Positions 3,583 to 63,979 of a stretch of 64,000 bases of DNA are shown here, one piece after another. Both the position numbers and the translations under genes were made by a program. Within the stretch, counting starts at the first letter, position 1; each line of letters begins with the position of its first letter. Source of the stretch: Gammaproteobacteria bacterium (GTDB lineage Bacteria > Pseudomonadota > Gammaproteobacteria > Legionellales > Legionellaceae); assembly GCA_026399205.1 (NCBI GenBank), contig JAPLRL010000035.1:15310-79309 (forward strand), read 5' to 3'. Below the pieces are notes generated by a model. That model did no database searches. It worked only from the letters and a program-made list of their open reading frames with translations, and was not told the DNA's origin.

Positions 3583-4912
3583 CTAAACGCCCTTTTGATA
3601 AAAGGCTCCATTCTGTCTAGAAGCCTTCTTCATCTGATACATGGCTTCATCTGCATGTTCAATAAGTTCTTCAGCTAAAAGACTATCCTCTGAGTATATC
3701 GCGACGCCGATACTTAACTCTATTGGTATAGGGTGCCCCTCAATAGTTAATGTTACCCGCCTTGAGTGCTCTAGAATTTTCGCTACGATTTTCAAGGCTG
3801 CTTCTCTTGAAGCAAGATGCGTCAATAAAACAACAAACTCATCGCCGCCAAAGCGTGAGACAACATCCGATTTACGAACTGTTGATTGCAAAAAATGAGC
3901 TATTTCACATAAAAAAGTATCACCTACCAAATGCCCATATCGATCATTAACCGACTTAAAATGATCGACGTCAATAAATAAAACTGCCATAATCTGTGGG
4001 GATCTTGTTGTAGCTAGAATGAATTGATTTAATTTTTCTATAAAAAATCGTCGGTTGGGCAAATGCGTTAATGAATCATAAAAGGCATAATATTTAATTT
4101 GCTGCTCATTCTTTTTTCTTGCGGTAATATCAGAAAAAACAGCGACATGATATGTATTTTTAATCCATGGATCAGTTAATACAGAAATGTTAATCCACTC
4201 CGCAAAAAACTCACCAGACTTTCTACGATTCCAAATTTCACCTTCCCAAAATCCTTTTTCACTCAAATCTGTCCAGAGTTTTTTATAAAATTCTTGTAAC
4301 TACCCAGGTACGTCATCCTGAGCGTAGCGAAGGATCTCAATTTGACAAAGATCTAGCCAAATTCAGGAGGTCCTTCACTGCGTTCAGGATGACGTTTGTT
4401 CGTTGTGAGTGCTAATAAAACAAACTTATCCACTCCACAACCTGAGGAGTTACAAATTCTTTATCTTGTCTTCCAGAACTCAGTAGGCTAGGATTTTTAC
4501 CATATACCTCATCAAAGGAGTAGCCTGTAATATTCGTATATCCCTTATTAATATAAATAATTTTATTATTCTGATCGGTGATGACCACAGCTTCACGAAT
4601 TTCATTCAATGCCAAATAAACCAATTTAAGCAATTTAGAAACGCGCATTTTTTGACGCAAGGCATAAGCGACTATGAACGTAACCCCAAAAAACAAAAAG
4701 ACAATGAGTCCGCGCATCCAAATTTCATTCCTATTATTAGGAATCAAGCTTTGTTGCATCGACCCTGTATGAAAAACAAAGACATGCAGTAACGATTCAC
4801 CAAGCCAATAAATCATCGCCAAGATCAAACCAACCCCTAGCGTTTTTGTATAATAAAATAACCCTTCTTTGCTATCCGATTTATCTAACATTGGATCTCT
4901 TTGCGATATCAC
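3583..4912 (-). pseudogene. membrane-anchored PAS-GGDEF diguanylate cyclase gene split by a 158-bp MITE insertion
   Basis: ORF 4412..4912 encodes TM helices plus the start of a PAS domain (..ITGYSFDEVYGKNPSLLSSGRQDKEF). ORF 3583..4266 encodes the rest of the PAS domain (GFWEGEIWNRRKSGEFF) and a GGDEF domain (RFGGDEFVVLL); its listed start is a TTG. Removing element 4296..4453 plus one 8-bp repeat copy restores a single 387-aa frame. Confidence 0.85.
4296..4453. mobile_element. C-family MITE, long form (C1), inserted in the PAS-GGDEF gene
   Basis: Termini are GTAAC...GTTAC with identical 8-bp direct repeats AAATTCTT at 4288..4295 and 4454..4461. An internal imperfect inverted repeat is present (GTCATCCTGAGCGTAGCGAAGGATC / GGTCCTTCACTGCGTTCAGGATGAC). 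Its first 138 nt are identical to 50785..50922. Confidence 0.85.
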
Positions 4913-4946: not shown

Positions 4947-4987
4947 TAATACCCCACGTCATCCTGAGCGCACGGCTGATCCTCTCA
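4947..4987. repeat. C-family solo arm (C2)
   Basis: GTAATACCCCACGTCATCCTGAGCGCA.. matches the left end of C10. No partner arm is present. Confidence 0.6.
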
Positions 4988-6831: not shown

Positions 6832-6926
6832 TATACTCGAATACCCCCTCCCTAACCCTCCCCCGCGTTCAGCATAGAGATCTTATAACCGTTTCTAGCG
6901 CGGGAGAGGGAACAGATCCGAGTATA
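6832..6926. repeat. D-family repeat (D1)
   Basis: TATACTCGAATACCCCCTCCCTAACCCTCCCCCGCG-N32-CGCGGGAGAGGGAACAGATCCGAGTATA, between thiL and pgpA. Confidence 0.85.
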
Positions 6927-9739: not shown

Positions 9740-9810
9740 AAATCCGAGCCGCGACCGTCAGGGAGCGGAAGTTTAAAACTTCCGCTCCCTGACGGTCGCG
9801 GCTCGGATTT
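9740..9810. repeat. A-family palindrome (A1), 71 bp with perfect 35-nt arms
   Basis: AAATCCGAGCCGCGACCGTCAGGGAGCGGAAGTTT-A-AAACTTCCGCTCCCTGACGGTCGCGGCTCGGATTT. Confidence 0.9.
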
Positions 9811-15000: not shown

Positions 15001-15098
15001 TAGTGGGAACAATGTTTACATTGTTTGTATTGCCAACCGTGTATACTTTTTTGGCGTCGGATCATCGAGTGGATTGCGCTCGAATACCCCCACCCTAA
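12054..15098 (+). CDS. RND efflux permease (AcrB/MdtB-type)
   Basis: 1014 aa with FIKRPVLSSVVSLLILLFG, ..LAIGLVVDDAIVVVENI.., and 12-TM architecture. The last 7 codons and the TAA stop (15096..15098) lie inside repeat D2. Confidence 0.9.
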   Translation: MSMTHVFIKRPVLSSVVSLLILLFGLYSFTQLQVRQFPKLDNTVITVMTAYPGADPDLIAGFITTPLEAAVASAEGIDYMVSSSTQGVSTITLTIKLNFDPQVAFTDVMSKVQQTLNQLPPQAQRPVILKSSDVSTPLMYISLDSHDMTPQQITDYATRVVQPQLQTVDGVAQAQLLGGASYAMRIFLNPIKMAAFHVTPADVSTLLANNNFLTAAGNSKGEYVAINLSAETDLKDPEAFKQLIIRSDGNNRVHLGEVANIFLGSQNYDTSVSFNGKKAVFLAITPTPSANPLTVIAAVRAAFPAITQGFPPSLIGTIVYDATEFIRASIKEVLQTIVEATLIVIAVIFLFLGSPRSVMIPVVTIPLSLIGVCTLMHFLGYSINLLTLLAFVLAIGLVVDDAIVVVENIHRHIEEGMTPYDAALQGAQEITIPVIAMTITLAAVYAPIGFMQGLTGALFKEFAFTLASTVLISGIIALTLSPMMCSQLLKPHTTVSPFMHRIDRFFDNTREHYKQSLHALLNERDIVVLLVAVILIVLPYLYTQTPKETAPEEDQGFFIVASTPPQYATLNYIETYTNAFKKIYTSFPETGHYFIINANQPLSGIVLKPWGERKRSQFKLKAPLQAKLDSIAGLTSYAIIPPSLPGGGTGTPIQFVIKTTSDFQTLYQVSYDLLNQARKSGLFIFSDNSLKFNQPQISLTIQRSKAADLGLDMQKIGSNLAGALSENYVNYFNLKGRSYQVIPQLERRFRATPHALEEIYVQTKHGQMIPMSTFVTPVEKVLPNALTHFQQMNAATIQAVMMPGHTLGEGLTYLTSLAKDALPKGFSYDFAGQSRQFVQEGNALIYAFFLAVIVIFLVLAAQYESYRDPLIILISVPLSICGALIPLNLGLASINIYTQIGLITLIGLISKHGILIVDFANHLQQTKHLSKREAVEEAASIRLRPILMTTAAMVLGVVPLLIASGAGAESRFDIGVVIASGLLVGTMFTLFVLPTVYTFLASDHRVDCARIPPP

Positions 15099-15169
15099 CC
15101 CCCCCCCGCGTTCAGTATATGAGTTTTATAAGCGTTCCGCGCGCGGGAGAGGCGACAGTTCGGAGTATA
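15077..15169. repeat. D-family repeat (D2) overlapping the 3' end of the RND permease gene
   Basis: CGCTCGAATACCCCCACCCTAACCCCCCCCCGCG..GCGCGGGAGAGGCGACAGTTCGGAGTATA. Confidence 0.85.
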
Positions 15170-15211
15170 GAAAAATTTTAGGGACGTGACTTCAAACATA
15201 AAGGGACAAAC

Positions 15212-16046: not shown

Positions 16047-16220
16047 TCAGATCAGTCCCCTCTCCCGCGCGACAAACTTTTGAAAGACGACTATGCTGAA
16101 CGCGGGGGAGGGTTAGGGAGGGGGTACACTGAGTATTGCCCCCTCCCCAACCCTCCCCCGCGAAAAACATCAACATGATATTCAACTTTCTAGCGCGGGA
16201 GAGGGGGTATTCGAGCGTAA
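16047..16220. repeat. D-family dimer (D3+D4)
   Basis: Two units: ..GATCAGTCCCCTCTCCCGCGCG..GCGGGGGAGGGTTAGGGAGGGGG.. followed by CCCCCTCCCCAACCCTCCCCCGCG..CGCGGGAGAGGGGGTATTCGAGCG. Same architecture as 28866..29040. Confidence 0.85.
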
Positions 16221-16247
16221 ATAAAATTAGAAATACTAGGATCCCCA

Positions 16248-19501: not shown

Positions 19502-20776
19502 CTATGCCAAGTGCGGATCGTCATCCCGAGCGAAGCGAGGGATCTCCTTCAAAGTGGCACAGTGCCGCATCAAGAGATCCCTCGCTTCGCTCGGGATGAC
19601 GTGGCTTTTGGAACAATGCTCATTCTTTGGCCGGATTCCCGCGGATCTATTGACGGGATGAACGAAGAACTCCGCATCATCATCATCCAAAATAGACGCA
19701 ACCCATTGTTTTCGACTTAAAGAAAACAGTGGATTTAGCGTCTCTTCAGCGTCTAATGAACTTATCTCCGGCGAAACCTCTAACTCATCATCAATGAGGT
19801 CATCTAATTTATTCCAACTGCATAACTTATTCCAGAGTTTTTTCACACATTGATCTAGTTTTTCCCCTACGATGGCTAATAGCTTATAGGGAATCAGTAA
19901 AATATAACTTAACCTTGCGAACCCTCGAAAACAAAAGTAAGACGCTAGAACCAAGGTATCCAAAAAAACAGCATTTATTTTTTCAAATTTTCGGAAGAAT
20001 TGGTCTTTGCTTTTACACGAAAAACACGCGAGCAACACATTAAATGGATACTGGCAGAGTATGAACACAACTATCACTAATCCTAGTAAACCATCTCTTA
20101 CTCCCAGCAGCATTGATTTTAAATCAGATAAGATGGCTTTAAATGAGCGATAGGCTGAAAAAAGTTTATCTAAACTGGTTTCAGAAAATTCGTGTTTAAA
20201 TTGATCTCGAATTTTTTGTAATGAAAGAGTCACCGCTTGACCAAAAAAATTCAACACGTCTGCGTTCGGATCAGGGGGCAGAAACGAGTTCATCGCGTTA
20301 TATAAGAAGGTTTCAATATAATCAAAGTAATCAATGTCGTTTAATTGAATTGCTCTTACTGTATAATCAGATGCTTCATCTGGAACCAAGTCATTTTTTT
20401 CCGAATCAGTGACAACTTGAAATAAGAAAAAGTTTTTCTTAACTGATCGAGCGATATGATAAAACACGCTGACGAGACAGCGAACGGGAATAAAAAAAAG
20501 TTCAGTAAGGCCCTTTAGTCCACCATATAATTTAAGCAATAGAAGCAAAAATGGATAATAAAAATGGAGGATCAACATGCTCTTGATTCCCCCGCCCCTA
20601 CTCTCTTTATAAAATACGCATTTTAATAAAAGCACAGGAATAAGCATGAGGGCCAACATGATTAACATCAAACTAGCGCCAATGGTTTTTATCAAGCCCA
20701 TGCCTAGATTTTTCAATGCGTGTAAAAGTTCTCTGGGATGGTCGTAAGGGCCTAATTGCATGTGGTCCGCCTTCAT
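19502..20776 (-). CDS. hypothetical multi-pass membrane protein with an acidic C-terminal region; the tail is translated from repeat C3
   Basis: 424-aa ORF with several hydrophobic segments. The last 33 codons (..HVIPSEARDLLMRHCATLKEIPRFARDDDPHLA) read through repeat 19519..19601. Confidence 0.5.
   Translation of the reverse strand: MKADHMQLGPYDHPRELLHALKNLGMGLIKTIGASLMLIMLALMLIPVLLLKCVFYKESRGGGIKSMLILHFYYPFLLLLLKLYGGLKGLTELFFIPVRCLVSVFYHIARSVKKNFFLFQVVTDSEKNDLVPDEASDYTVRAIQLNDIDYFDYIETFLYNAMNSFLPPDPNADVLNFFGQAVTLSLQKIRDQFKHEFSETSLDKLFSAYRSFKAILSDLKSMLLGVRDGLLGLVIVVFILCQYPFNVLLACFSCKSKDQFFRKFEKINAVFLDTLVLASYFCFRGFARLSYILLIPYKLLAIVGEKLDQCVKKLWNKLCSWNKLDDLIDDELEVSPEISSLDAEETLNPLFSLSRKQWVASILDDDDAEFFVHPVNRSAGIRPKNEHCSKSHVIPSEARDLLMRHCATLKEIPRFARDDDPHLA
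19519..19601. repeat. C-family palindromic repeat (C3)
   Basis: CGTCATCCCGAGCGAAGCGAGGGATCTCC-N25-GAGATCCCTCGCTTCGCTCGGGATGACG. It is translated as the C-terminus of ORF 19502..20776. Confidence 0.85.
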
Positions 20777-22527: not shown

Positions 22528-22580
22528 GTCATCCCGAGCGAAGCGAGGGATCTCCTGCAACTACGAGGGGATCCTTCAGC
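22528..22580. repeat. C-family repeat, right arm degraded (C4)
   Basis: GTCATCCCGAGCGAAGCGAGGGATCTCC..GGGGATCCTTCAGC, intergenic. Confidence 0.7.
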
Positions 22581-26888: not shown

Positions 26889-26917
26889 CGTCATCCCGAA
26901 CGCAGTGAGGGATGACG
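26889..26917. repeat. C-family minimal hairpin (C5)
   Basis: CGTCATCCCGAACGCAGTGAGGGATGACG, intergenic. Confidence 0.6.
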
Positions 26918-26935
26918 TGGGGCGAGAGCAAGACA

Positions 26936-27682: not shown

Positions 27683-27719
27683 GACTGCTGCCTTAAAAGA
27701 AGTATCTGAAAAAAGGTAT

Positions 27720-27783
27720 CCGAGCCGCGACCGTTAGGGAGCGGAAGTTTTAAAATTTCCGCTCCCTAACGGTCGCGGCTCGG
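27720..27783. repeat. A-family palindrome (A2)
   Basis: CCGAGCCGCGACCGTTAGGGAGCGGAAGTTTTAAAATTTCCGCTCCCTAACGGTCGCGGCTCGG, in a divergent promoter region. Confidence 0.9.
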
Positions 27784-27872
27784 TTAGATTGAGCAAAATA
27801 TTACGAATGGCGTTTCATTATGGAGACCGTAATAGTAATATTACTTTTTCTATGGCATCTACTCAAGAGATT

Positions 27873-28820: not shown

Positions 28821-28865
28821 TGTGTAATTAGGCAACGTCCCTAAAGTTTTCATATATTCCGATCA

Positions 28866-29040
28866 GTCCCCTCTCCCGCGCGAGAAACCCTGATAAAACG
28901 CATAGGCTAAACGCGGGGGAGGGTTAGGGAGGGGGCTACAATAGGCTTGGGCTTTACCCCCTCCCCAACCCTCCCACGCGAAAAACTTCATCATGCTGTT
29001 CAAACTTCTAGCGCGGGAGAGGGGGTATTCGAGCGTAAAA
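28866..29040. repeat. D-family dimer (D5+D6)
   Basis: Same two-unit layout and orientation as 16047..16220, with different loop sequences. Confidence 0.85.
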
Positions 29041-29042
29041 AA

Positions 29043-29825
29043 CTAAGGGGCTACATCCAACTTTGCAGCCTCAATCGACTCATGATACGTCGCTTGATAC
29101 ACCACGGCAGCTTCTTCCATCGCCTTTTTTAAACCCAATTGTTTATACGAGCGATACATCACAACCAATGCATCATGCACCGCAGGGGCTTGAGGATACG
29201 TTTGGACCACATAGTTTGCTCGAGCAGCAGCTGCGACATACATGTCTCTATCGAAATAATATTTTCCATTATTGAGCTCGTGTTGGGCAAATTCATTTCT
29301 TAAGTAAATTAAACGATGTAAGGCATTTTGGTAATAAACACTTTTTGGAAATTTTTCAATGAACACTAAAAAATCAGTGTACGCTTGTAATTGTGTGCCT
29401 GGATCACGCCAAGACTCATCAACAGACAATAAATGCCCTAATGCGCTTCTGGGTTGTTGGAAGTTTGCCAATGCTTTCATGTAATAAGCATAATCTACGT
29501 GTTCTGAACGTGGGTAAAGATGGATATAATGATCAGCTTCAGCAGAAGCTGCAGGATATTCACCGTTTTGATAATAGGCATAAATAAGTAAACGTTGTGC
29601 GCGTTCTGAATAAGGACTAAATGGATACATGGATTCTAGAGCTTCGAGCCGTTTTGCTGCACTAGAATATTGTTTGGCAGTGATAGCTTTGTCTGCCTCA
29701 GCATAAAGTTGTTTTGCCTCTATGCCTTTATACAGCCCTAAGCCGTCGTCTTCATCTTTATTCCACCATGAATTACAACCTGCTAATGCCAAAAGAGTCA
29801 GTATCAAAACGACGCGTTTCATCAT
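29043..29825 (-). CDS. bamD: outer membrane protein assembly factor BamD
   Basis: Has a lipobox (MMKRVVLILTLLALAGC) and TPR-like repeats (..YPFSPYSERAQRLLIYAYYQNGEYPAA..YPRSEHVDYAYYM..). The ORF-track start at 29963 would read through the tRNA-Ser gene, so it is rejected. Confidence 0.85.
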   Translation of the reverse strand: MMKRVVLILTLLALAGCNSWWNKDEDDGLGLYKGIEAKQLYAEADKAITAKQYSSAAKRLEALESMYPFSPYSERAQRLLIYAYYQNGEYPAASAEADHYIHLYPRSEHVDYAYYMKALANFQQPRSALGHLLSVDESWRDPGTQLQAYTDFLVFIEKFPKSVYYQNALHRLIYLRNEFAQHELNNGKYYFDRDMYVAAAARANYVVQTYPQAPAVHDALVVMYRSYKQLGLKKAMEEAAVVYQATYHESIEAAKLDVAP

Positions 29826-29845
29826 CACCTTATTCACTAAAAAAA

Positions 29846-29933
29846 TGGCGGAAGCGGTGAGATTCGAACTCACGAACGGTTGCCCGTCGCCGGTTTTCAA
29901 GACCGGTGCATTCAACCACTCTGCCACGCTTCC
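29846..29933 (-). tRNA. tRNA-Ser (anticodon UGA)
   Basis: The reverse complement is GGAAGCGTGGCAGAGTGGTTGAATGCACCGGTCTTGAAAACCGGCGACGGGCAACCGTTCGTGAGTTCGAATCTCACCGCTTCCGCCA. It has a 7-bp acceptor stem, anticodon loop CTTGAAA, a long variable arm, a T-loop GTTCGAATC and an encoded CCA. Confidence 0.9.
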
Positions 29934-29978
29934 GTAGTAATCAGGCGATGCGTAATATACCAATCCAAGGTAAGGTCG

Positions 29979-34561: not shown

Positions 34562-34653
34562 TATACTCCGATCAGTCCCCTCCCCAACCCTCCCCCGCGA
34601 AGAACATCAATATTTTGTTCAAACTTCTAGCGCGGGAGAGGGGTATTCGAGCA
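34562..34653. repeat. D-family repeat (D7)
   Basis: TATACTCCGATCAGTCCCCTCCCCAACCCTCCCCCGCG..CGCGGGAGAGGGGTATTCGAGCA. Confidence 0.85.
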
Positions 34654-34744
34654 TAAAAAGGTTAGGGGCGCTGCCTAGACGCGTTGATGGCACGACAACA
34701 ATAGGTATATACTCATTCAACCCATTCAAACAAGGACTGTTTAA

Positions 34745-37422: not shown

Positions 37423-37517
37423 CGTTAAGTCTCCAACTGCGTACAACACTTTGCGAACTATAAAATATTCTAGAGGTAGATACAAGTCTAACACGATGCT
37501 TAACTTTTCACCCGATA

Positions 37518-37588
37518 CAAACCGAGCCGCGACCGTGAGGGAGCGGAAGTGTAAAATTTCCGCTCCCTCACGGTCGCGGCTCGGTTTG
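37518..37588. repeat. A-family palindrome (A3)
   Basis: CAAACCGAGCCGCGACCGTGAGGGAGCGGAA..TTCCGCTCCCTCACGGTCGCGGCTCGGTTTG. Confidence 0.9.
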
Positions 37589-37710
37589 ATTGAGCGAAAA
37601 GTTAAGTATACCCAACGCTAATGAGTTTTCGGATTTTATGCTATTGATTTATGACTCACATATTAGTTATGCTGAAGCCCAGGACGCGACAAATAGATGG
37701 ATCTAAACTC

Positions 37711-38980: not shown

Positions 38981-39307
38981 AAAAATTCACTTGTTTAAGC
39001 AAGTCAGCATCCTCCTTCAAACACCGCACACCATCATCCGCCCTCGCCAAATACAACCCCATGATTTTATGCGCATCACTCGGGCCGCATTTTACTGTGG
39101 TGATCGGGAGATTCTAGACAGCTATGAGGTAAAAGCACGGAAAGAACCTGCGATCTATCCGCCTTTGGTAGAGCTTATTCGTCAGAGTCCTAACCCTGCG
39201 TTTATTGCAGCGGTTCATCAAAAACAGGGCTTGCAAACGGCGCGCCCAGTGCCGCAGGAAGTTGTTTATCACCCGCCGCTTGCGGTATATCGACCGCCAA
39301 ACACGGA

Positions 39308-39394
39308 ATCCGAGCCGCGACCGTTAGGAAGCGGAACATTTAAAACTACTGCGCTCTAATAAAACTTCCGCTCCCTAACGGTCGCGGCTCGGAT
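39308..39394. repeat. A-family, long variant (A4)
   Basis: The arms are as in A1. An extra ~20 nt in the loop looks like a partial duplicate of the right arm (AAAACTACTGCGCTCT / AAAACTTCCGCTCCCT). Confidence 0.85.
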
Positions 39395-39495
39395 GTATCG
39401 AGCGAATTTATCGAGCGGATATATGACATATCGCATCTTATCCTCAGGTACGATATACTACCGGCTTACTCACCAACCTACGCTAATGACCCACT

Positions 39496-40458: not shown

Positions 40459-40985
40459 TGCAAGATATTCTAGAAAAAGCTAAAAAAATTCAGTGCGTGA
40501 TTTGTGATGTCGATGGGGTGATGACCAATGGTCTGTTATATATTGACAATGCCTGTAATGAATTAAAAGCGTTTCATGTCCAAGATGGCTTAGGCTTAAA
40601 ATTACTCTTAGCCGCTGACCTCGATGTTGCCATCATTACCGGCTCACAAAATGCGGTGATTGATCATCGCATGCAGCAATTAGGCATCACCCATTATTTT
40701 AAAAACCAACACGATAAAACCCAAGCGTTTCTTGAAATCCAAACGCGGTTACGCCTCAGTGATGACGCGTTTGCGTATATCGGCGACGATTTACCCGATC
40801 TCCCTTTTATTAAGCGCGTAGGGCTCGGGGTTGCGGTGGCTAATGCGATAGACGACGTCAAGCTATGCGCTGATTATCAAACCAAAGCCTCCGGTGGAAA
40901 CGGCGCGGTAAGAGAGGTCTGTGATTTGATATTAAGGGCTCAGGGGAAGTATGAGTCTGCGATTGAGCGTTATTTTTCATCATGA
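40458..40985 (+). CDS. kdsC: 3-deoxy-D-manno-octulosonate 8-phosphate phosphatase KdsC
   Basis: HAD motifs are present: ICDVDGVMTNG.., ..ITGSQN.., ..YIGDDLPDLP... Confidence 0.9.
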   Translation: MQDILEKAKKIQCVICDVDGVMTNGLLYIDNACNELKAFHVQDGLGLKLLLAADLDVAIITGSQNAVIDHRMQQLGITHYFKNQHDKTQAFLEIQTRLRLSDDAFAYIGDDLPDLPFIKRVGLGVAVANAIDDVKLCADYQTKASGGNGAVREVCDLILRAQGKYESAIERYFSS

Positions 40986-41551
40986 GCACTCTTCCTGCGG
41001 CACGTCATCCCGAGCGTTCCATGCGTCATCCCGAGCGTAGCGAGGGATCTCCACCCAGTAGCAGGAGATCCCTCGCTACGCTCGGAATGACGTGGAAAAC
41101 GTGCAAGTCATTCGCAATGACCACCGGTTTATTTTTACTCGCCTTTTCCGGCTGGTACTTTGGCAAATCAACCCCACCGCTTTTAAATCAACAGACCCTC
41201 ATGCATCAAGTCGATGCCATCATGACGGATCTCCATTTTTATGAATTTGATGAGCGTGGCCAGCTCAGTAAACACATGGTAGCCGCTAAAATGGAGCACA
41301 TGCCATTTAATAATCAATTTTTTTTGACTCAGGTTATCCTCACGCATCATCAGTCTGAAAATAAAACAAGCATGCATACCGATGCGTTAACCTATCTGCC
41401 CAAAACCGCCCTTGCATTTACCGATTCGCCTGTTATCTTTGAGCAAGCTGAGCAACGCATAGAGTCAAAAGGAATGCAGGCGAATTTAAATACCAATCAA
41501 ATTAAGCTCAATCATGCACGTGCAACTATTAAGCCAAAAGATGAGGCGTAG
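40982..41551 (+). CDS. lptC: LPS export protein LptC, with a repeat-derived N-terminal segment
   Basis: The ATG overlaps the kdsC stop (ATGA). It has a TM anchor (TTGLFLLAFSGWYFG) and an OstA-like body. Codons 8-37 (RHPERSMRHPERSEGSPPSSRRSLATLGMT) are repeat C6. An alternative start at MTTGLF (about 41117) cannot be excluded. Confidence 0.75.
   Translation: MSTLPAARHPERSMRHPERSEGSPPSSRRSLATLGMTWKTCKSFAMTTGLFLLAFSGWYFGKSTPPLLNQQTLMHQVDAIMTDLHFYEFDERGQLSKHMVAAKMEHMPFNNQFFLTQVILTHHQSENKTSMHTDALTYLPKTALAFTDSPVIFEQAEQRIESKGMQANLNTNQIKLNHARATIKPKDEA
41003..41092. repeat. C-family repeat inside the lptC reading frame (C6), 90 nt, left terminus duplicated
   Basis: CGTCATCCCGAGCGTTCCATG + CGTCATCCCGAGCGTAGCGAGGGATCTCC..GGAGATCCCTCGCTACGCTCGGAATGACG. 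The 21-bp duplication encodes RHPERSM. Confidence 0.85.
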
Positions 41552-42816: not shown

Positions 42817-42831
42817 CTGAGAGAAACAAGA

Positions 42832-42919
42832 AATCCGAGCCGCGACCGTCAGGAAGCGGAAATTTTAAACTCCCGCTCTCCAATAAAACTTCCGCTCCCT
42901 AACGGTCGCGGCTCGGATT
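42832..42919. repeat. A-family, long variant (A5), between convergent lptB and relA
   Basis: Same architecture as A4 (..TTAAACTCCCGCTCTCCAATAAAACTTCCGCTCCCT..). Confidence 0.85.
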
Positions 42920-42944
42920 GATCGAGGTATGCTTTAAGATCTGA

Positions 42945-47759: not shown

Positions 47760-47779
47760 GGCTTCCCTCTCTGGATCAT

Positions 47780-47847
47780 ATCCGAGCCGCGACCGTTAGG
47801 GAGCGGAAATTTTAAAACTTCCGCTCCCTAACGGTCGCGGCTCGGAT
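47780..47847. repeat. A-family palindrome (A6)
   Basis: ATCCGAGCCGCGACCGTTAGGGAGCGGAAATTTTAAAACTTCCGCTCCCTAACGGTCGCGGCTCGGAT, between dusA and yciO. Confidence 0.9.
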
Positions 47848-50591: not shown

Positions 50592-50784
50592 ATTGAAGCG
50601 AATGGGGATGAGTTTAACGTATTGTGGGAAATGGTTCTAGGTTAACGCTCGAATACCAATAAACACTCGAATACCCCCAAACTTCTTCCATAAAACAGTC
50701 TCAACAGCATGCTCCTCTGTGACCGACTCTACTGTTGTATTCAAACGCCTGACCAAGTGTGTTATGATTATAACAAAAAAAAAT

Positions 50785-50922
50785 GTAACTACCCAGGTAC
50801 GTCATCCTGAGCGTAGCGAAGGATCTCAATTTGACAAAGATCTAGCCAAATTCAGGAGGTCCTTCACTGCGTTCAGGATGACGTTTGTTCGTTGTGAGTG
50901 CTAATAAAACAAACTTATCCAC
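50785..50922. mobile_element. C-family MITE, long form (C7); right end diverged or truncated
   Basis: Identical base for base to 4296..4433 by my side-by-side reading. It diverges after ..CTTATCCAC. It lies immediately upstream of the Mth938-like gene. Confidence 0.8.
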
Positions 50923-57245: not shown

Positions 57246-57267
57246 ATCCTGACCTTACGTTGACGCC

Positions 57268-57400
57268 ATTCTCAACCTCTCACTCGAACTAACCGAGCCG
57301 CGACCGTTAGGGAGCGGAAATTTTAAAAGAACACGAAAGTATTAAAACTTCCGCTCCCTAACGGTCGCGGCTCGGATTGTATCGCGTGAAAGTTGAGAAT
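57268..57400. promoter_or_regulatory. 16-18 bp inverted repeat in the bioB/bioA divergent region, arms separated by repeat A7 (candidate split operator)
   Basis: The left arm is ATTCTCAACCTCTCACTC (57268..57285). The right arm is GCGTGAAAGTTGAGAAT (57384..57400), whose reverse complement is ATTCTCAACTTTCACGC. About 14 of 17 positions match. Confidence 0.3.
57293..57375. repeat. A-family, long variant (A7), in the bioB/bioA divergent region
   Basis: CCGAGCCGCGACCGTTAGGGAGCGGAAATTTTAAAAGAACACGAAAGTATTAAAACTTCCGCTCCCTAACGGTCGCGGCTCGG. Confidence 0.9.
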
Positions 57401-57465
57401 CGCGTTACTTTTATGTTCACAACATGATAAAGTGAAAGTCTATACAGAGCAAGAACCATAGCATT

Positions 57466-58780: not shown

Positions 58781-58949
58781 GTAGGGTGGACAAAGGAGCC
58801 CCACTATAAATTTTTCGGTTTCTGGAATCTTCTGGGCGACGTGTCCACCGGTGGCTCGGCGGTGGCTCAGTGCCGCCCATGGTGGGCACGTCGCCCGGAA
58901 GATCCCAGTCAACAGAAAGCCCTGTGCGGGGCTCCTTTGTCCACCCTAC
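58781..58949. repeat. E-family repeat, full length, 169 bp (E2)
   Basis: Has 20-bp terminal inverted repeats GTAGGGTGGACAAAGGAGCC / GGCTCCTTTGTCCACCCTAC. An internal hairpin is present (GGCGACGTGTCCACC..GGTGGGCACGTCGCC). It lies between bioA and coaE. Confidence 0.85.
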
Positions 58950-58978
58950 GACTTCGTTTGGAAAAAAGGTGAAACTAT

Positions 58979-59716
58979 ATGTATTGTATCGGCTTAACTG
59001 GGCGCATCGCTAGTGGCAAAAGCACTGTTGCTCGCTTTTTCCAAGACCTTGGCGTTCCTGTCATTAGCGCCGATCAACTCAATCACGGCCTATTACAAAA
59101 AGACACCCCCGCATATCAGGCTATCTTGCAACATTTTGGCACAAAAGTATTGGGTGACGATCAGAGCATCAATAAAGCTTTTTTAAAAGAAAAATTAATA
59201 CACCATCCTCAAGAGCGCCAATGGCTTGAAGCCTTATTACATCCCATGATTCAAGCTTTAATTCAACAGCAGATTCAAGCCTTGGTCGCGCCTTACTGTG
59301 TGATCGAAATCCCCCTGAAAATCAAAAAAACCGACTACCCCTATTTAGATCGCATTTTACTGATCGATTGTGATGAATCCACTCAATTACAGCGCCTGAT
59401 GGAGCGAGATAAAGTATCTCAGGCTAATGCGCATGCATTGATACAGATTCAAGACAGTAGAGAAGCCTATCGTCGCACAGGAGATGACATCATTGATACA
59501 TCAGGTCATCCCACAGAAGTACGTCATCCCACAGAAGTACGTCATCCCACAGAAGTACGTCATCCCGCAGAAGTACGTCATCCCGAGCATAGCGAGGGAT
59601 CTCCTCATATAAGCACAGTGCCAATCGAAAGGAGATCCCTCACTATGTTCGGGATAACAAAAATAATCAAAAAATTACACGCTCAATATTTACAATACGC
59701 AAGACAGAAGTCATGA
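58979..59716 (+). CDS. coaE: dephospho-CoA kinase with an in-frame repeat-derived insertion of about 51 aa
   Basis: Shows IGLTGRIASGKST (P-loop), ..LLHPMI.. and ..GDDIIDTSG. Then comes the insertion [HPTEVRx3, HPAEVR, HPEHSEGSPHISTVPIERRSLTMFGIT]. Then comes KIIKKLHAQYLQYA, matching the E. coli CoaE C-terminus ..DDVIDNNG..RLHAHYLQLA. Confidence 0.85.
   Translation: MYCIGLTGRIASGKSTVARFFQDLGVPVISADQLNHGLLQKDTPAYQAILQHFGTKVLGDDQSINKAFLKEKLIHHPQERQWLEALLHPMIQALIQQQIQALVAPYCVIEIPLKIKKTDYPYLDRILLIDCDESTQLQRLMERDKVSQANAHALIQIQDSREAYRRTGDDIIDTSGHPTEVRHPTEVRHPTEVRHPAEVRHPEHSEGSPHISTVPIERRSLTMFGITKIIKKLHAQYLQYARQKS
59505..59576 (+). repeat. 18-bp tandem repeat x4 (GTCATCCCACAGAAGTAC) abutting repeat C8 inside coaE
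   Basis: There are three identical units plus one with a single A-to-G change. Each unit begins with the C-family terminal octamer GTCATCCC and encodes the in-frame hexapeptide repeat (HPTEVR x3, HPAEVR). Confidence 0.9.
59577..59658. repeat. C-family repeat inside coaE (C8)
   Basis: GTCATCCCGAGCATAGCGAGGGATCTCC..GCACAGTGCC..GGAGATCCCTCACTATGTTCGGGATAAC. It shares the central GCACAGTGCC with C3. Confidence 0.85.
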
Positions 59717-60538: not shown

Positions 60539-63500
60539 TTAACTTAAGTTGCATCGCTCGGGGTTCGCACTCACTTCAGGCATCACAACAATAGGCGTTT
60601 CCACATACTTCTCAGCCGCTTCATGAAGCCCTTGCTGAAATCTCATGCAATCCTCAGGATTTGCAAAATAACTCGCCAAAAGCTGTGGAAACAGTGTCAA
60701 CACATCAGCTTGACCTTGATACAAACTCATCAAGAGACCCGCGCGAGGCTCGGAAACATATTGTGCATGATACCAGGCCCAATTCTGGATTTCCGCAACA
60801 TCATCACCGACCAAAGGTAATCGATAGGTCTGAATAACCTCCAAGGTGGTGAAATAAAAATAATATTGATAAAACTCAACAAACAATTTCATATCCGCAA
60901 TGGAATGTAGCTGCGGTGTAGGCAGCGCATCTAATGCCCTTGGAAAACACTGCAGCATATTATCGTCAACCTGTGTTTTTGATAAGCACTCTCCAAATTG
61001 ACGCGTACGCCAGAGCCATCCACCGACAAGATCTGCAAAAGACTTAAGGGGCACCATCAGCGGTTGGAGACGGGGTACACACTGCCGATTTTCCATATCT
61101 AAAGGCGCTCCCGCCAAATAGGCCTGAAGATGTTCTCTATAACAGGTGATAAGAAAAGTACGTTCAACGATGCTGAGTCTTTGCAAAACAGGATAGTCTG
61201 TAACGTTTTTTACAAAAAAAATATCGGGTAAATCAGTTGGAATACCATATCGGTCATAAGAGATGACTTGCGGTGATCGAGAGGCTGGTTGAAAAAACTG
61301 TGGCGTATTTGATTCAGTCGGGGGTAACGATGGAGGCGGAGGCGGAGCGACGGAGCTCCCCTCGTTTGCCACCCTCCCTTCATCAGGAGATTCCGAGCTC
61401 TGCTCCGGATGACGGGACCTAGCACGTGGTTGTTCTATATTTTCCGCCTGAAAACGTTCTTTATTACTCCAGCATTCCAATGCCAGCCAACTAGCCTGCT
61501 CTTCTTGATCAATCAATTGATGTGCACTATCAGACTCCGCCATCATGCATGTCTGTGCTTTAAATTGCGAAAACCTAAACCGAATGGCTTGTACATCACT
61601 GGTTTTTTGCTTCACCATCCCTTGAAATTGGGTGGTTTGTTCATCAGTTAGAGAGACTCTGAGACTTTTTTCATTTCCGACAATGTTTTCCCTCTCTTGT
61701 TCTCGCTGCAATTTGACTTGCGTTTGATGACGCTCTTCAAGACTTCGCTTTACAGCAGAAATAGACCTCACGTCTTTATCATATGCTTCACTATTGACCT
61801 TTCGTTGTTTTTTTTCTGTGCTTTGGATGCTCGCGAATTGATCAGCATACCCTGCAGCATATCCTTGTTGAATGTCTTGCGCCTCAATACGATATAACTC
61901 GCTACGTGCCTGCTCTTCTTCATCTACCTGAGCTTGAATCAGTTTATCTCGGGCCTTAATATTTTCATCTGAAAATTGTTTTAACGCATCCAGTGCCCAT
62001 TTCCAATGGCATTCAGGCCAGCGTTCGCGATAAGACTGATAAAGGCCATAAATTGCGCCAAGACGTAGCAAGAGCGTTGGAAAAATCCGCTCAACTTGTC
62101 GATAGGTTAAATCCAAAATTTTATCCTGGCTAGACAGCTGTAAAGATCGTGGCTTTTTAGTCGACAATAAATTCACTTTCTGCGAAAGCAATATAAAATC
62201 ATACACTTCAGGATATAAATTCAAATACGCTTTCAGGGACAGTGAATAAAGCAAAAGCTCTTGATATAAATCAATGCGCCTTAAATTTTTCGCTTCTAAA
62301 CTCAGTGTAACCTGTTTAAATAAAGACAGGAGCGCATAAAAATCAATGTTATAAATGCGTTGAGGAGATTTTTTATATCCAAGGATTTTATGAGAGTATG
62401 TTTCAAGTTGTCCTGTATGCCCACCCAAATAAAATTCAGGTAACAGCGCGATATAATCTTCAGGCACTTCACCTTGCATCATCTCAAGATGGAACAGCCC
62501 AGGATATTGCCTAAACCCCGTGCTTAAATGTGATAAATTCGGTGTAAGCCTACGCGCTTGTGGCGTGGGAAAAACTTCACGCATAAGATGCTTATACATC
62601 TCATACGGAATCTTCGACAACAGTGCGGTCAATAGCAAATGAGAAGGTTTTAACAAGCTGAGCATCGGTAAAAAGGCTTCCAAACCAAAAGTTCGACTCG
62701 CCATTCTGCACATCGATTCATAGGTATCAGGATAAATCACTGCGGTAAAAACAATCCCGTTTGGCATGATCATATCAAAACCACATCCGGGTTTATCAAC
62801 CGGCGTTTCATTCTCTTGTGTGAGTGGATCCACAAAGCGTAAAGTTCCAATACTAATGGCTTGACCTGCCTCATTGAAGCAAATCGATTTAATGCGACCA
62901 GGAGAATGAATGGTCGCAGGCCCACAGATGCGCCCTTCTTTCAACGCGCCTTTATAGCGCAAAGGAAACAACGTACCTTCGAGTATTAAACCATCACGGT
63001 ATTCTGTACGAATCTTTAAACCCAAATGTACGACATCAGGTAAAACATGGTCGACATTACTGGGTGTATACGTGATTAATTCACCCTGTGGATCTGTTAT
63101 TTTTTGATTTTTCAGGTGTGGCGTAATCCGTCCATGCGAGGACATTAATATGAGGTTTGAGCTCATGTTTTTGAACTCAAAAATGTCAGCCATCCAAGTG
63201 TTACTGTGTTTTTTGGTCTTGCGTTTTTCTATATGAGTAGAATAATAACTAAAATTATGAGGGTCACTCACCCAGTGAGTCGTTACCAGGGTATAAAATG
63301 GATGGCTATCTATATAAGGATAAGACTCTGTAGGACAATGAAACCCAACATAATCAGCTTCAGTATAAATACACGTCTCCATGTAGTTCTTTTCTGCAAC
63401 CATACAGGTGTTACCGAAAACCCATGACGAATGTCGATATATCCCTTTTGATAAACGCTCTTGCATATGCAACTTATATACAAAAGGCGCAGGGAGCGCC

Positions 63501-63724
63501 TTATCTGTGTGTGCGAGTATCTCCTCAATCCATTGACGCCGTAGAGAAAGCTCCCCCTGATCATTATATTCGTCTAGAGAAAAAATACGAAAACCACCTG
63601 CCAGGAACGAAACGGATCGATGGCGCAAATGCCGCCAGACTAGAACATTCTCGGGTGCTGGATGGGTGATGAGTTGCTGATATAAGGTTTTCTTGCCGTT
63701 GTATTCGATGAAAGGAGTGGGCAT
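60539..63724 (-). CDS. large hypothetical protein (1061 aa) with a central coiled-coil and a repeat-derived Pro-rich linker
   Basis: Long uninterrupted ORF. I recognise no domain. Residues ..RSRHPEQSSESPDEGRVANEGSSVAPPPPPSLPP.. correspond to a degenerate C-family repeat. Confidence 0.6.
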   Translation of the reverse strand: MPTPFIEYNGKKTLYQQLITHPAPENVLVWRHLRHRSVSFLAGGFRIFSLDEYNDQGELSLRRQWIEEILAHTDKALPAPFVYKLHMQERLSKGIYRHSSWVFGNTCMVAEKNYMETCIYTEADYVGFHCPTESYPYIDSHPFYTLVTTHWVSDPHNFSYYSTHIEKRKTKKHSNTWMADIFEFKNMSSNLILMSSHGRITPHLKNQKITDPQGELITYTPSNVDHVLPDVVHLGLKIRTEYRDGLILEGTLFPLRYKGALKEGRICGPATIHSPGRIKSICFNEAGQAISIGTLRFVDPLTQENETPVDKPGCGFDMIMPNGIVFTAVIYPDTYESMCRMASRTFGLEAFLPMLSLLKPSHLLLTALLSKIPYEMYKHLMREVFPTPQARRLTPNLSHLSTGFRQYPGLFHLEMMQGEVPEDYIALLPEFYLGGHTGQLETYSHKILGYKKSPQRIYNIDFYALLSLFKQVTLSLEAKNLRRIDLYQELLLYSLSLKAYLNLYPEVYDFILLSQKVNLLSTKKPRSLQLSSQDKILDLTYRQVERIFPTLLLRLGAIYGLYQSYRERWPECHWKWALDALKQFSDENIKARDKLIQAQVDEEEQARSELYRIEAQDIQQGYAAGYADQFASIQSTEKKQRKVNSEAYDKDVRSISAVKRSLEERHQTQVKLQREQERENIVGNEKSLRVSLTDEQTTQFQGMVKQKTSDVQAIRFRFSQFKAQTCMMAESDSAHQLIDQEEQASWLALECWSNKERFQAENIEQPRARSRHPEQSSESPDEGRVANEGSSVAPPPPPSLPPTESNTPQFFQPASRSPQVISYDRYGIPTDLPDIFFVKNVTDYPVLQRLSIVERTFLITCYREHLQAYLAGAPLDMENRQCVPRLQPLMVPLKSFADLVGGWLWRTRQFGECLSKTQVDDNMLQCFPRALDALPTPQLHSIADMKLFVEFYQYYFYFTTLEVIQTYRLPLVGDDVAEIQNWAWYHAQYVSEPRAGLLMSLYQGQADVLTLFPQLLASYFANPEDCMRFQQGLHEAAEKYVETPIVVMPEVSANPERCNLS
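61340..61414. repeat. degenerate C-family repeat inside the 1061-aa ORF (C9)
   Basis: The minus strand reads CGTCATCCGGAGCAGAGCTCGGAATCTCC, against consensus CGTCATCCCGAGCGTAGCGAGGGATCTCC (about 6 mismatches in 29). The partner arm is weaker (GGAGCTCCGTCGCTCCGCC). Confidence 0.55.
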
Positions 63725-63865: not shown

Positions 63866-63979
63866 GTAACTCCCCACGTCATCCTGAGCGCCAGCGAAGG
63901 ATCTCCTGCTAATTAGCACATTGCTAGCTAGGGGGGATCCTTCGCTGGCGCTCAGGATGACGTGTACCTGGGTAGTTAC
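63866..63979. mobile_element. C-family MITE, short palindromic form (C10)
   Basis: GTAACTCCCCACGTCATCCTGAGCGCCAGCGAAGGATC ... GATCCTTCGCTGGCGCTCAGGATGACGTGTACCTGGGTAGTTAC. It is flanked by identical 8-bp direct repeats TCTGATTA (63858..63865 and 63980..63987). Confidence 0.85.

Follow-up and report, generated by a model that had tools for sequence, protein, structure and literature searches.

The coaE gene and its insert

The subject of this analysis is a small palindromic repeat, preceded by a tandem array of its own terminus, that lies in frame inside coaE, the gene for dephospho-CoA kinase, in a 64-kb window of a metagenome-assembled genome (MAG). The window is the whole stretch of contig JAPLRL010000035.1 that was analysed, positions being counted from its first letter, and what is said below about this genome refers to it. 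The host is probably an uncultured Legionella-like or Legionellales-like gammaproteobacterium and probably intracellular. CoaE is the last enzyme of coenzyme A (CoA) synthesis. The coaE open reading frame (ORF; 58979..59716, forward strand), assigned from the ORF list and Pfam, encodes 245 residues including the insert, and a preliminary description of the window had already named the gene and noted that the insert brings in neither a stop nor a frameshift. Both points held: the protein matched PF01121 (CoaE) over residues 2-176 (E = 5.9e-48, 163.4 bits against a cut-off of 27), and the ORF reads ...RRTGDDIIDTSG-HPTEVR-HPTEVR-HPTEVR-HPAEVR-HPEHSEGSPHISTVPIERRSLTMFGIT-KIIKKLHAQYLQYARQKS. CoaE chains in the PDB also matched the protein (E = 2.8e-43), the best solved relatives being those of L. 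pneumophila (4TTP) and E. coli (1VHL). In an alignment with 14 homologues (15 sequences in all), the window CoaE keeps 33 of 33 invariant columns, and the residues kept include the P-loop GxxxxGKS (G8..G13, K14, S15), D32, the lid arginines R139 and R143, and D144.

The insert lies between the last beta-strand and the C-terminal helix of CoaE and has two parts, both on the forward strand. The first is a run of four 18-nt tandem units (59505..59576), GTCATCCC-ACAGAAGTAC three times and then GTCATCCC-GCAGAAGTAC (in full, GTCATCCCACAGAAGTAC three times and GTCATCCCGCAGAAGTAC once), which encode (H)PTEVR three times followed by HPAEVR, and each of which opens with the head octamer of the palindromic element. 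Tandem Repeats Finder reported this array at 59505-59584 (period 18, 4.4 copies, 98% matches, score 153), by far the strongest of the window, and its head-to-tail, near-identical units with a length divisible by three are those of a coding variable-number tandem repeat (VNTR). The second part is an 82-nt palindrome (59577-59658) composed of a left arm (59577..59605, GTCATCCCGAGCATAGCGAGGGATCTCCT) that encodes (R)HPEHSEGSP and has 0 mismatches to the query arm and 1-3 to other copies, a 24-nt central loop (59606..59629) that varies among copies, and a right arm (59630..59658, AGGAGATCCCTCACTATGTTCGGGATAAC) that encodes RRSLTMFGIT and has 3 mismatches to the family consensus. The 29-nt arms are 90% complementary, and as RNA the palindrome folds at -49.1 kcal/mol compared to -17 +/- 3 for shuffles (z = -10.5). 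The element is decayed, its left apex being GCATAGC in place of GCG(A/T)AGC, in addition to the mismatches of its right arm. The array, the inverted repeat and nine matches to the arm sequence in the window (≤3 mismatches; 0.00 expected) thus agree with the preliminary description, in which the insert was a member of a repeat family joined to a fourfold 18-bp array opening with the terminal octamer.

Read forwards, the 154-nt insert segment is free of stops in only one of its three frames, and this is the frame in use. Downstream of the insert, the native codons of the C-terminal helix (KIIKKLHAQYLQYARQKS, 59659..59713, forward strand) follow in frame; in the alignment they are close to those of orthologues (P0002: IKKLHQQYLQYATQKS), with 13 of 16 residues identical to one of them. 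As the coaE hairpin has no T-tract it is not an intrinsic terminator, and scans for promoters and terminators in the surroundings of coaE gave no result better than chance. A Pfam match of residues 178-203 to DUF1388 fell below the gathering score and was rejected as a low-complexity repeat match.

There are 51 codons between ..TSG and KIIKKLH in the window CoaE, as counted previously; as a count this figure stands, but it is not the size of the insertion. Because orthologues hold about six residues in this place (the DD-to-LH spacing is 17 residues in 13 of the 14 aligned orthologues and one more in P0001; E. coli reads G-APDAIASDVAR-LH), the net gain is 45 codons (135 nt = 3x18 + 81). When 59523-59657 is removed in silico, the CoaE that remains has 200 residues, reads ..DTSGHPTEVPKIIKKLH.. 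and agrees with the orthologues in loop length and hydrophobic pattern; judging from the sequence, one of the HPTEVR units may be ancestral or may have taken the place of ancestral residues. Units 1-3 are the same and the fourth has one base changed, a G at position 9 that is shared with the element, a pattern that fits recent local amplification. The spacer CCACAGAAGTACGTC occurs at a single locus in the window. We considered the spacer ACAGAAGTAC as a part of the element and rejected this, as it is unique to the coaE locus in the window.

Orthologues and independent assemblies

The 120 best database homologues of CoaE are 191-224 residues long, the closest having 55% identity, and no comparable insert was found in any of these 120 best listed matches. 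Scans of genome and metagenome contigs with the CoaE body gave matches of ≤48% identity, mostly in Legionellales MAGs, none with an insert. In the alignment of orthologues that had been proposed as a check, the window protein is the one with the insertion, with the net gain given above. The contig in the Logan assemblies that carries the closest homologue (P0001, 55%) keeps the coaE-zapD order and has neither the insert nor a copy of the repeat family. P0001 (L100:1950-2010) departs from all other homologues after ..KYL, and its last 16 codons overlap a small hairpin (ctctgtaca...tggtacagag); the 3' end of this coaE may be another case of remodelling by a repeat or a terminator hairpin.

That the insert might be an assembly artefact was raised in the preliminary description, and independent Logan assemblies of individual runs were inspected for the same junctions. 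One Logan contig runs from bioA through the coaE body and ends within the array at window position 59534 (..GGTCATCCCACAGAAGTACGTCATCCCACAG); a second starts within the array at 59537 and matches the window without a difference across the last units, the palindrome, the 3' end of coaE and zapD. The second contig was recovered separately in SRR20698642 and SRR20698643, and SRR20698644 gave a Logan contig with bioA only. As both insert junctions are reproduced in independent per-run assemblies, the insert is real. The Logan assemblies use k=31 and their contigs break inside the array, so that they do not count its units and the exact number comes from the MAG assembly; for a break at k=31 the 18-nt periodicity must be perfect over at least 49 nt, and we take this to mean that three or more units are identical. 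The neighbouring BioA (MCX7114905) and ZapD (MCX7114907) are exact matches to GenBank proteins, as is a 1061-aa ORF discussed below (MCX7114908, NTW08_03210). The 245-aa CoaE had no exact match in the protein collection, though both of its neighbours do, and the protein number between the BioA and ZapD accessions is presumably CoaE.

Predicted structure of the enlarged CoaE

An AlphaFold2 model was built from the 15-sequence alignment. The model had a mean predicted local distance difference test score (pLDDT) of 85 and a predicted template modelling score of 0.78, with the core above 90, and in Foldseek its target template modelling scores were 0.87 to 4TTP and 0.88 to 4I1U. Confidence drops over residues ~177-222, with means of 10-residue blocks of 38-73 across 171-220 and values below 50 at 187-196 and 203-220; low confidence is partly built in here, as no other row of the alignment has the insert. 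The same residues are modelled without regular secondary structure. A confident C-terminal helix follows (223-244; pLDDT 81-97 over the native helix codons), beginning inside the element-encoded MFGIT. The structure prediction suggested in the preliminary description thus places a low-confidence segment without regular structure before the last helix, and the model is consistent with a flexible surface loop that would leave the kinase core and C-terminal helix intact.

The repeat family within the window

By BLAST of four copies we mapped about 10 sites of the family in the window, 4-5 of which overlap ORFs. In addition to the coaE copy (59575-59658, forward strand, in the BLAST mapping), two copies lie in frame in other genes. 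The lptC ORF (40982..41551; Pfam LptC) has a copy near its N-terminus (41002..41093, forward strand) made up of a 14-nt head copy (41004-41017), a 7-nt spacer and a full 70-nt element; the segment encodes RHPERSM RHPERSEGSPPSSRRSLATLGMT, and the ORF reads MSTLPAA-RHPERSM-RHPERSEGSPPSSRRSLATLGMT-WKTCKSFAMTTGLFLL... The head copy stands 21 nt before the full element, and the duplicated terminus that had been reported for lptC is therefore genuine. The deposited annotation (MCX7114888) is a 189-aa product that contains the repeat. The repeat and its head copy come after the start codon and before the membrane anchor (..FAMTTGLFLLAFSGW..). Two internal Met codons, at 41087 and 41117, are possible alternative starts. 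The lptC start overlaps the stop of an upstream HAD-hydrolase ORF, possibly kdsC (ATGA, 40982-40985).

A decayed in-frame copy (61342..61414, minus strand; ..SRHPEQSSESPDEGRVANEGSSVA..) lies in the 1061-aa ORF (60539..63724), and the three genes share one element frame, RHPE.S(E/S)(G/E)S.. ...RSL..GMT. This minus-strand ORF has no Pfam domain and a coiled-coil or charged middle, and it may be an effector-like protein; a proline run, APPPPPSLPP, adjoins its repeat copy. In the other orientation of the element, a copy (19519..19602, minus strand) provides a 424-aa ORF (19502..20776) with its final ~30 codons and its stop, the ORF ending ..HVIPSEARDLLMRHCATLKEIPRFARDDDPHLA*. A further copy (4310..4395) is part of a 139-nt block (4295-4433) that is 100% identical to 50784-50922 and lies exactly between a PAS ORF (4412..4912) and a GGDEF ORF (3583..4266, MCX7114855), both on the minus strand. 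The PAS motif continues after the block (..FYKKLWTDLSEKGFWEGEIW..), and judging by this arrangement a PAS-GGDEF gene appears to have been split by the repeat insertion. The remaining sites are the intergenic twin of that copy (50799..50884), a short intergenic copy (22528..22577), a minimal intergenic copy with head and tail only (GTCATCCCGAACGCAGTGAGGGATGAC, 26889..26924), an intergenic copy with outer arms GTAACT.CCC..AC (63876..63963) and a head fragment (4956-4972).

Within 64 kb, the same family is thus apparently tolerated in coaE, lptC and a large ORF, donates a C-terminus to another ORF and apparently breaks a PAS-GGDEF gene at a site where the frame is not kept. With tolerated and disruptive copies side by side, a selection filter for in-frame, surface-loop insertions is made visible.

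The arm hairpin in other genomes

The degenerate 25-mer of the arm, GTCATCCYGAGCGNAGCGARGGATC, had exact matches in 76 IMG/VR loci (92 matches; L024-L099) with a G+C content of 43-71%. These copies, in phage or prophage and metagenome contigs, include both single arms and two-armed palindromes, and in two loci examined they sit among phage terminase, portal and tail genes. No transposase genes were found among the ORFs scanned next to the window copies or the multi-copy phage loci. Among the strict matches, arm positions Y8 and R20 co-vary without exception (T-A in 73, C-G in 14), and 38 relaxed arms show compensatory changes at pairs 4-24 (A-T/G-C), 6-22 (C-G/T-A/G-C) and 8-20, along with conserved inner G-C pairs and conserved GA steps (G9.A19 and A10.G18, 33/38 each). 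The predicted DNA fold of the arm is a stem ATCCY/RGGAT, then GA/GA, then GC(GNA)GC, the apex GCGNAGC being an extraordinarily stable DNA mini-hairpin (PMC13037366). Rfam gave no family for the element, its chance matches to miRNA hairpins being far below gathering scores, and a full-text literature search with the arm sequence found no relevant paper. The element-encoded peptide had few significant matches in protein databases, mostly short hypothetical ORFs.

Further TCATCC heads occur within ≤60 nt upstream of 11 of 87 phage or metagenome copies, compared to 2.7% of control windows, and 9 of 16 head-to-head distances in these copies are 17-22 nt. There are arrays of 2-4 heads with locus-specific spacers as well as mirror-image tail arrays (e.g., L062:11970-12080, L092 minus strand at ~8749, and L086). 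Translated head iteration was also found in database proteins: P0134 has RHPNFML four times followed by RHPERSEGSPAVWWRSLAALGMT, P0146 has RHPDVA followed by RHPERSEGSP.., and P0142 has NRHPVGP followed by NRHPERSEGSP... The period is 17-22 nt in non-coding copies and 18, 21 and 21 nt in the three ORF cases in which it is known, which is what one would expect if arrays persist in genes only when they keep the frame. Iterated heads at 17-22 nt characterise the repeat family at large and are not peculiar to coaE. When the lptC duplication was first described it was taken as a sign of slippage-prone ends; the duplication of the head is confirmed, but it is no local oddity, given the same iteration in unrelated genomes.

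Relation to known element classes

The comparison with Rickettsia palindromic elements (RPEs) made in the preliminary description is apt as an analogy of behaviour; membership of that family is not claimed. RPEs insert in frame in unrelated genes (Ogata et al. [quoted passage not shown] Like RPEs, the element is a small palindromic selfish repeat, occurring in numerous copies per genome and in frame in genes unrelated to one another, housekeeping genes among them, in the window namely in coaE, lptC and the 1061-aa ORF. In both cases the stop-free element frame is always the one used, the sites are those where the fold tolerates a surface loop, and the hosts are intracellular (here probably so) with repeat-rich genomes. 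The differences are that RPEs belong to alphaproteobacterial Rickettsia whereas the host here is a Legionellales-like gammaproteobacterium, that the element here is about 70-90 nt compared to about 100-150 nt, and that its arm, a REP-like mini-hairpin, recurs in phages and in genomes that differ widely in G+C. We know of no description of tandem iteration of the terminus for RPEs.

Repetitive extragenic palindromic (REP) sequences and their inverted doublets, REPINs (Nunvar 2010, PMC2817692; Bertels & Rainey 2011, PMC3116915), share with the element an imperfect palindrome of ~25 nt with a conserved 5' head and compensatory stem changes, a high copy density with most copies intergenic, and the lack of target-site duplication. 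The GCGNAGC-type apex (..AAGCGNAGCGC..) is likewise similar to that of enterobacterial REPs, where ..AAGCGNAGCGC.. stands behind a GTAG head (PMC2817692), and as in REPINs inverted doublets form a long hairpin, in coaE with the 29-nt arms described above. The head, however, is GTCATCC in all copies here and not GTAG; REPs are extragenic by name, whereas 4-5 of about 10 copies here overlap ORFs; and conservation of the arm across very different genomes is unusual for REPs. No REP-associated tyrosine transposase (RAYT) gene was seen near the copies in the 64 kb inspected. MITE-like features are the terminal inverted repeats, a length below 500 bp and the lack of a transposase, but no target-site duplications flank the copies in coaE or at 19519, 41024 and 63876, or the two-armed phage copies, and the flanks of copies tend to extend the palindrome. 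As both the GTAG head and target-site duplications are absent, the element is placed in no named family.

Small repeats that overlap annotated ORFs and add peptide are also known from QMITE1 and QMITE2 of Coxiella burnetii, whose host is likewise a member of the Legionellales, and from intragenic ERIC/MITE fusions (Delihas 2007, as cited in PMC10969869). The reported overlap of QMITE1 with functional genes amounts to 2-50 bp at their 3' ends (Wachter et al. 2018, PMC5896051), a milder, C-terminal effect compared to the internal read-through insertion in an enzyme core seen here, and the QMITEs are 150-400 bp long with direct repeats, QMITE2 carrying a GTAG REP. The array resembles VNTR-like contingency repeats in its near-identical 18-nt units, a multiple of three, and a probably variable copy number; it differs in that the unit is seeded by the terminus of a mobile hairpin and lies in a housekeeping enzyme and not a surface antigen. 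Coding palindromic insertion is thus a known phenomenon, and what is new here is the lineage, the repeat family and the translated tandem head array. The coaE locus offers a clean case outside Rickettsia of a selfish palindromic repeat in frame inside the core of a housekeeping enzyme. It also serves as a natural experiment on the amount of disordered loop that the fold of CoaE can accommodate just ahead of its last helix, and the 18-nt array would probably serve to mark strains.

Proposed origin of the insert and alternatives

Based on these results, we consider it likely that coaE received a REP/REPIN-like element in frame, that slippage built the array, and that ribosomes translate the whole into a flexible surface loop of a CoaE that still works. 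A small non-autonomous palindrome, an inverted doublet of a REP-like 25-nt mini-hairpin with the head GTCATCC, would have landed in the beta5-to-alphaC loop, where it would be tolerated by being in frame and in the element's single stop-free forward frame, so that the ribosome would read through. Afterwards, or in the same process, an 18-nt unit consisting of the element's first 8-9 nt and 9-10 nt of local sequence would have been amplified to four copies, most likely because replication slipped at the base of the highly stable hairpin; with a unit length divisible by three, the reading frame was preserved. The predicted product is a CoaE with a flexible extra surface loop of ~45 residues, (HPTEVR)4 followed by HPEHSEGSP...RSLTMFGIT. 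We infer that this enzyme retains its activity, that the array arose by slippage, and that this organism has coaE as an essential, single-copy gene; the insert is presumably translated, and peptides with HPTEVR or SEGSPHISTVPIER would be the mark of translation through it.

Several observations weigh against this account. Translation is argued from the DNA sequence, the low pLDDT and lack of regular structure at residues ~177-222 are partly expected from the alignment, and single-copy status is judged from 64 kb of genome, where a second coaE elsewhere is possible. With the closest relative found at 55% identity, the ancestral state and the age of the insert are not bracketed. Just before the insert (window 59480-59500), Gly replaces the nearly invariant A168 and Thr the nearly invariant N174. 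On the sequence, these two changes could be accommodation or damage, with a perturbed nucleotide-binding loop possible; the loop that holds them contacts the adenine of ATP in CoaE structures. Finally, the head octamer with which the array opens is joined to the codon of the conserved Gly176, so that there are five heads and four spacers, and a simple duplication of flank plus head does not predict a head at Gly176; GGT CAT CCC may by coincidence have been the ancestral codons, or else a first proto-unit was homogenised.

The two substitutions bear on the possibility that this coaE copy is functionally dead or dying, the insert disturbing the loop beside the nucleotide site and CoA coming from another copy or, in an organism that is Legionellales-like and probably intracellular, from the host. 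Other repeat damage in the genome, the apparent PAS/GGDEF split, points the same way, and an open frame of 51 codons can last some time without selection. We nonetheless think this quite improbable: no change is seen in the 33 invariant columns, the P-loop or the lid arginines, the C-terminal helix follows in frame with 13 of 16 residues identical to an orthologue, and the confident core of the model superposes on solved CoaE. Decay is seen in the element, with arms that are 90% complementary and 3 mismatches to the family consensus, and not in the surrounding gene. Still less probable, at the very low end of what we considered, is that the insert or its copy number is an assembly artefact, a repeat having been collapsed, expanded or made chimeric. 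The sequence does come from a MAG and the k=31 Logan contigs do break in the array, but both junctions recur base for base in the per-run assemblies, the break itself implies at least three identical units, and the perfectly periodic stretch of 62 nt is shorter than a normal Illumina read. Nor do we give much credence to exaptation, in which the His/Pro/Glu/Arg-rich loop would lend CoaE a new binding, localisation or regulatory property. The insert has persisted long enough for its palindrome to decay, and its right arm is predicted to extend the C-terminal helix; yet conservation cannot be demonstrated when no relatives carry the insert, the identical units suggest a recent, neutral-looking amplification, and the same peptide frame in unrelated proteins points to a passenger, so that we hold this to be very unlikely.

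A further alternative concerns the array step alone, and holds that the head array is not a product of slippage but a by-product of element mobilisation, an HUH/Y1-type transposase cutting ~17-22 nt from the hairpin foot in abortive or one-ended events (the cleavage distance being what we presume for IS608). Head and tail copies at 17-22 nt with locus-specific spacers in unrelated contigs and in proteins agree with this, as do the 14 nt shared by the lptC head copy and its element, which are too long for chance, and an arm architecture resembling that of REPs. Against it stand the lack of a transposase gene near any copy examined, the three coaE units that are identical including their spacer, as local tandem amplification gives, and the speculative nature of the mechanism; we regard it as unlikely, and retain slippage as the probable source of the coaE array. 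In a broader and somewhat doubtful reading, the coaE insert would be one instance of an undescribed cross-phylum mobile single-strand hairpin module whose mobilisation or replication leaves arrays of head plus ~10 nt of local spacer at a fixed period of 17-22 nt. The module may have the form GTC-ATCCY-GA-GC(GNA)GC-GA-RGGAT-C, with a REP-like fold, a tandem G.A motif and a GNA apex, and be found, as single copies or inverted doublets, in bacteria and phages whose G+C is 43-71%. If this were true, periods of 18 or 21 nt alone would survive in coding DNA, and the element would introduce short repeated peptides, (HPTEVR)n being one example, into proteins and among them essential enzymes; a REP-like mini-hairpin with iterated heads across phages and very different bacteria could point to an undescribed mobilisation mechanism.

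Other features of the window

At least three other palindromic repeat families occupy intergenic parts of the window, and the genome is unusually rich in small hairpin repeats. The sites fall into three groups: 9740-9810, 27718-27789, 37499-37609, 39299-39402, 42824-42926, 47775-47847 and 57263-57405 in the first; 6836-6926, 15079-15187, 16047-16225, 28858-29042 and 34577-34669 in the second; and 58781-58952 in the third. The sole Rfam match at the gathering threshold in the window was a tRNA (61.9 bits) at 29849-29933 on the minus strand, inside the mechanically called ORF 29043..29963.

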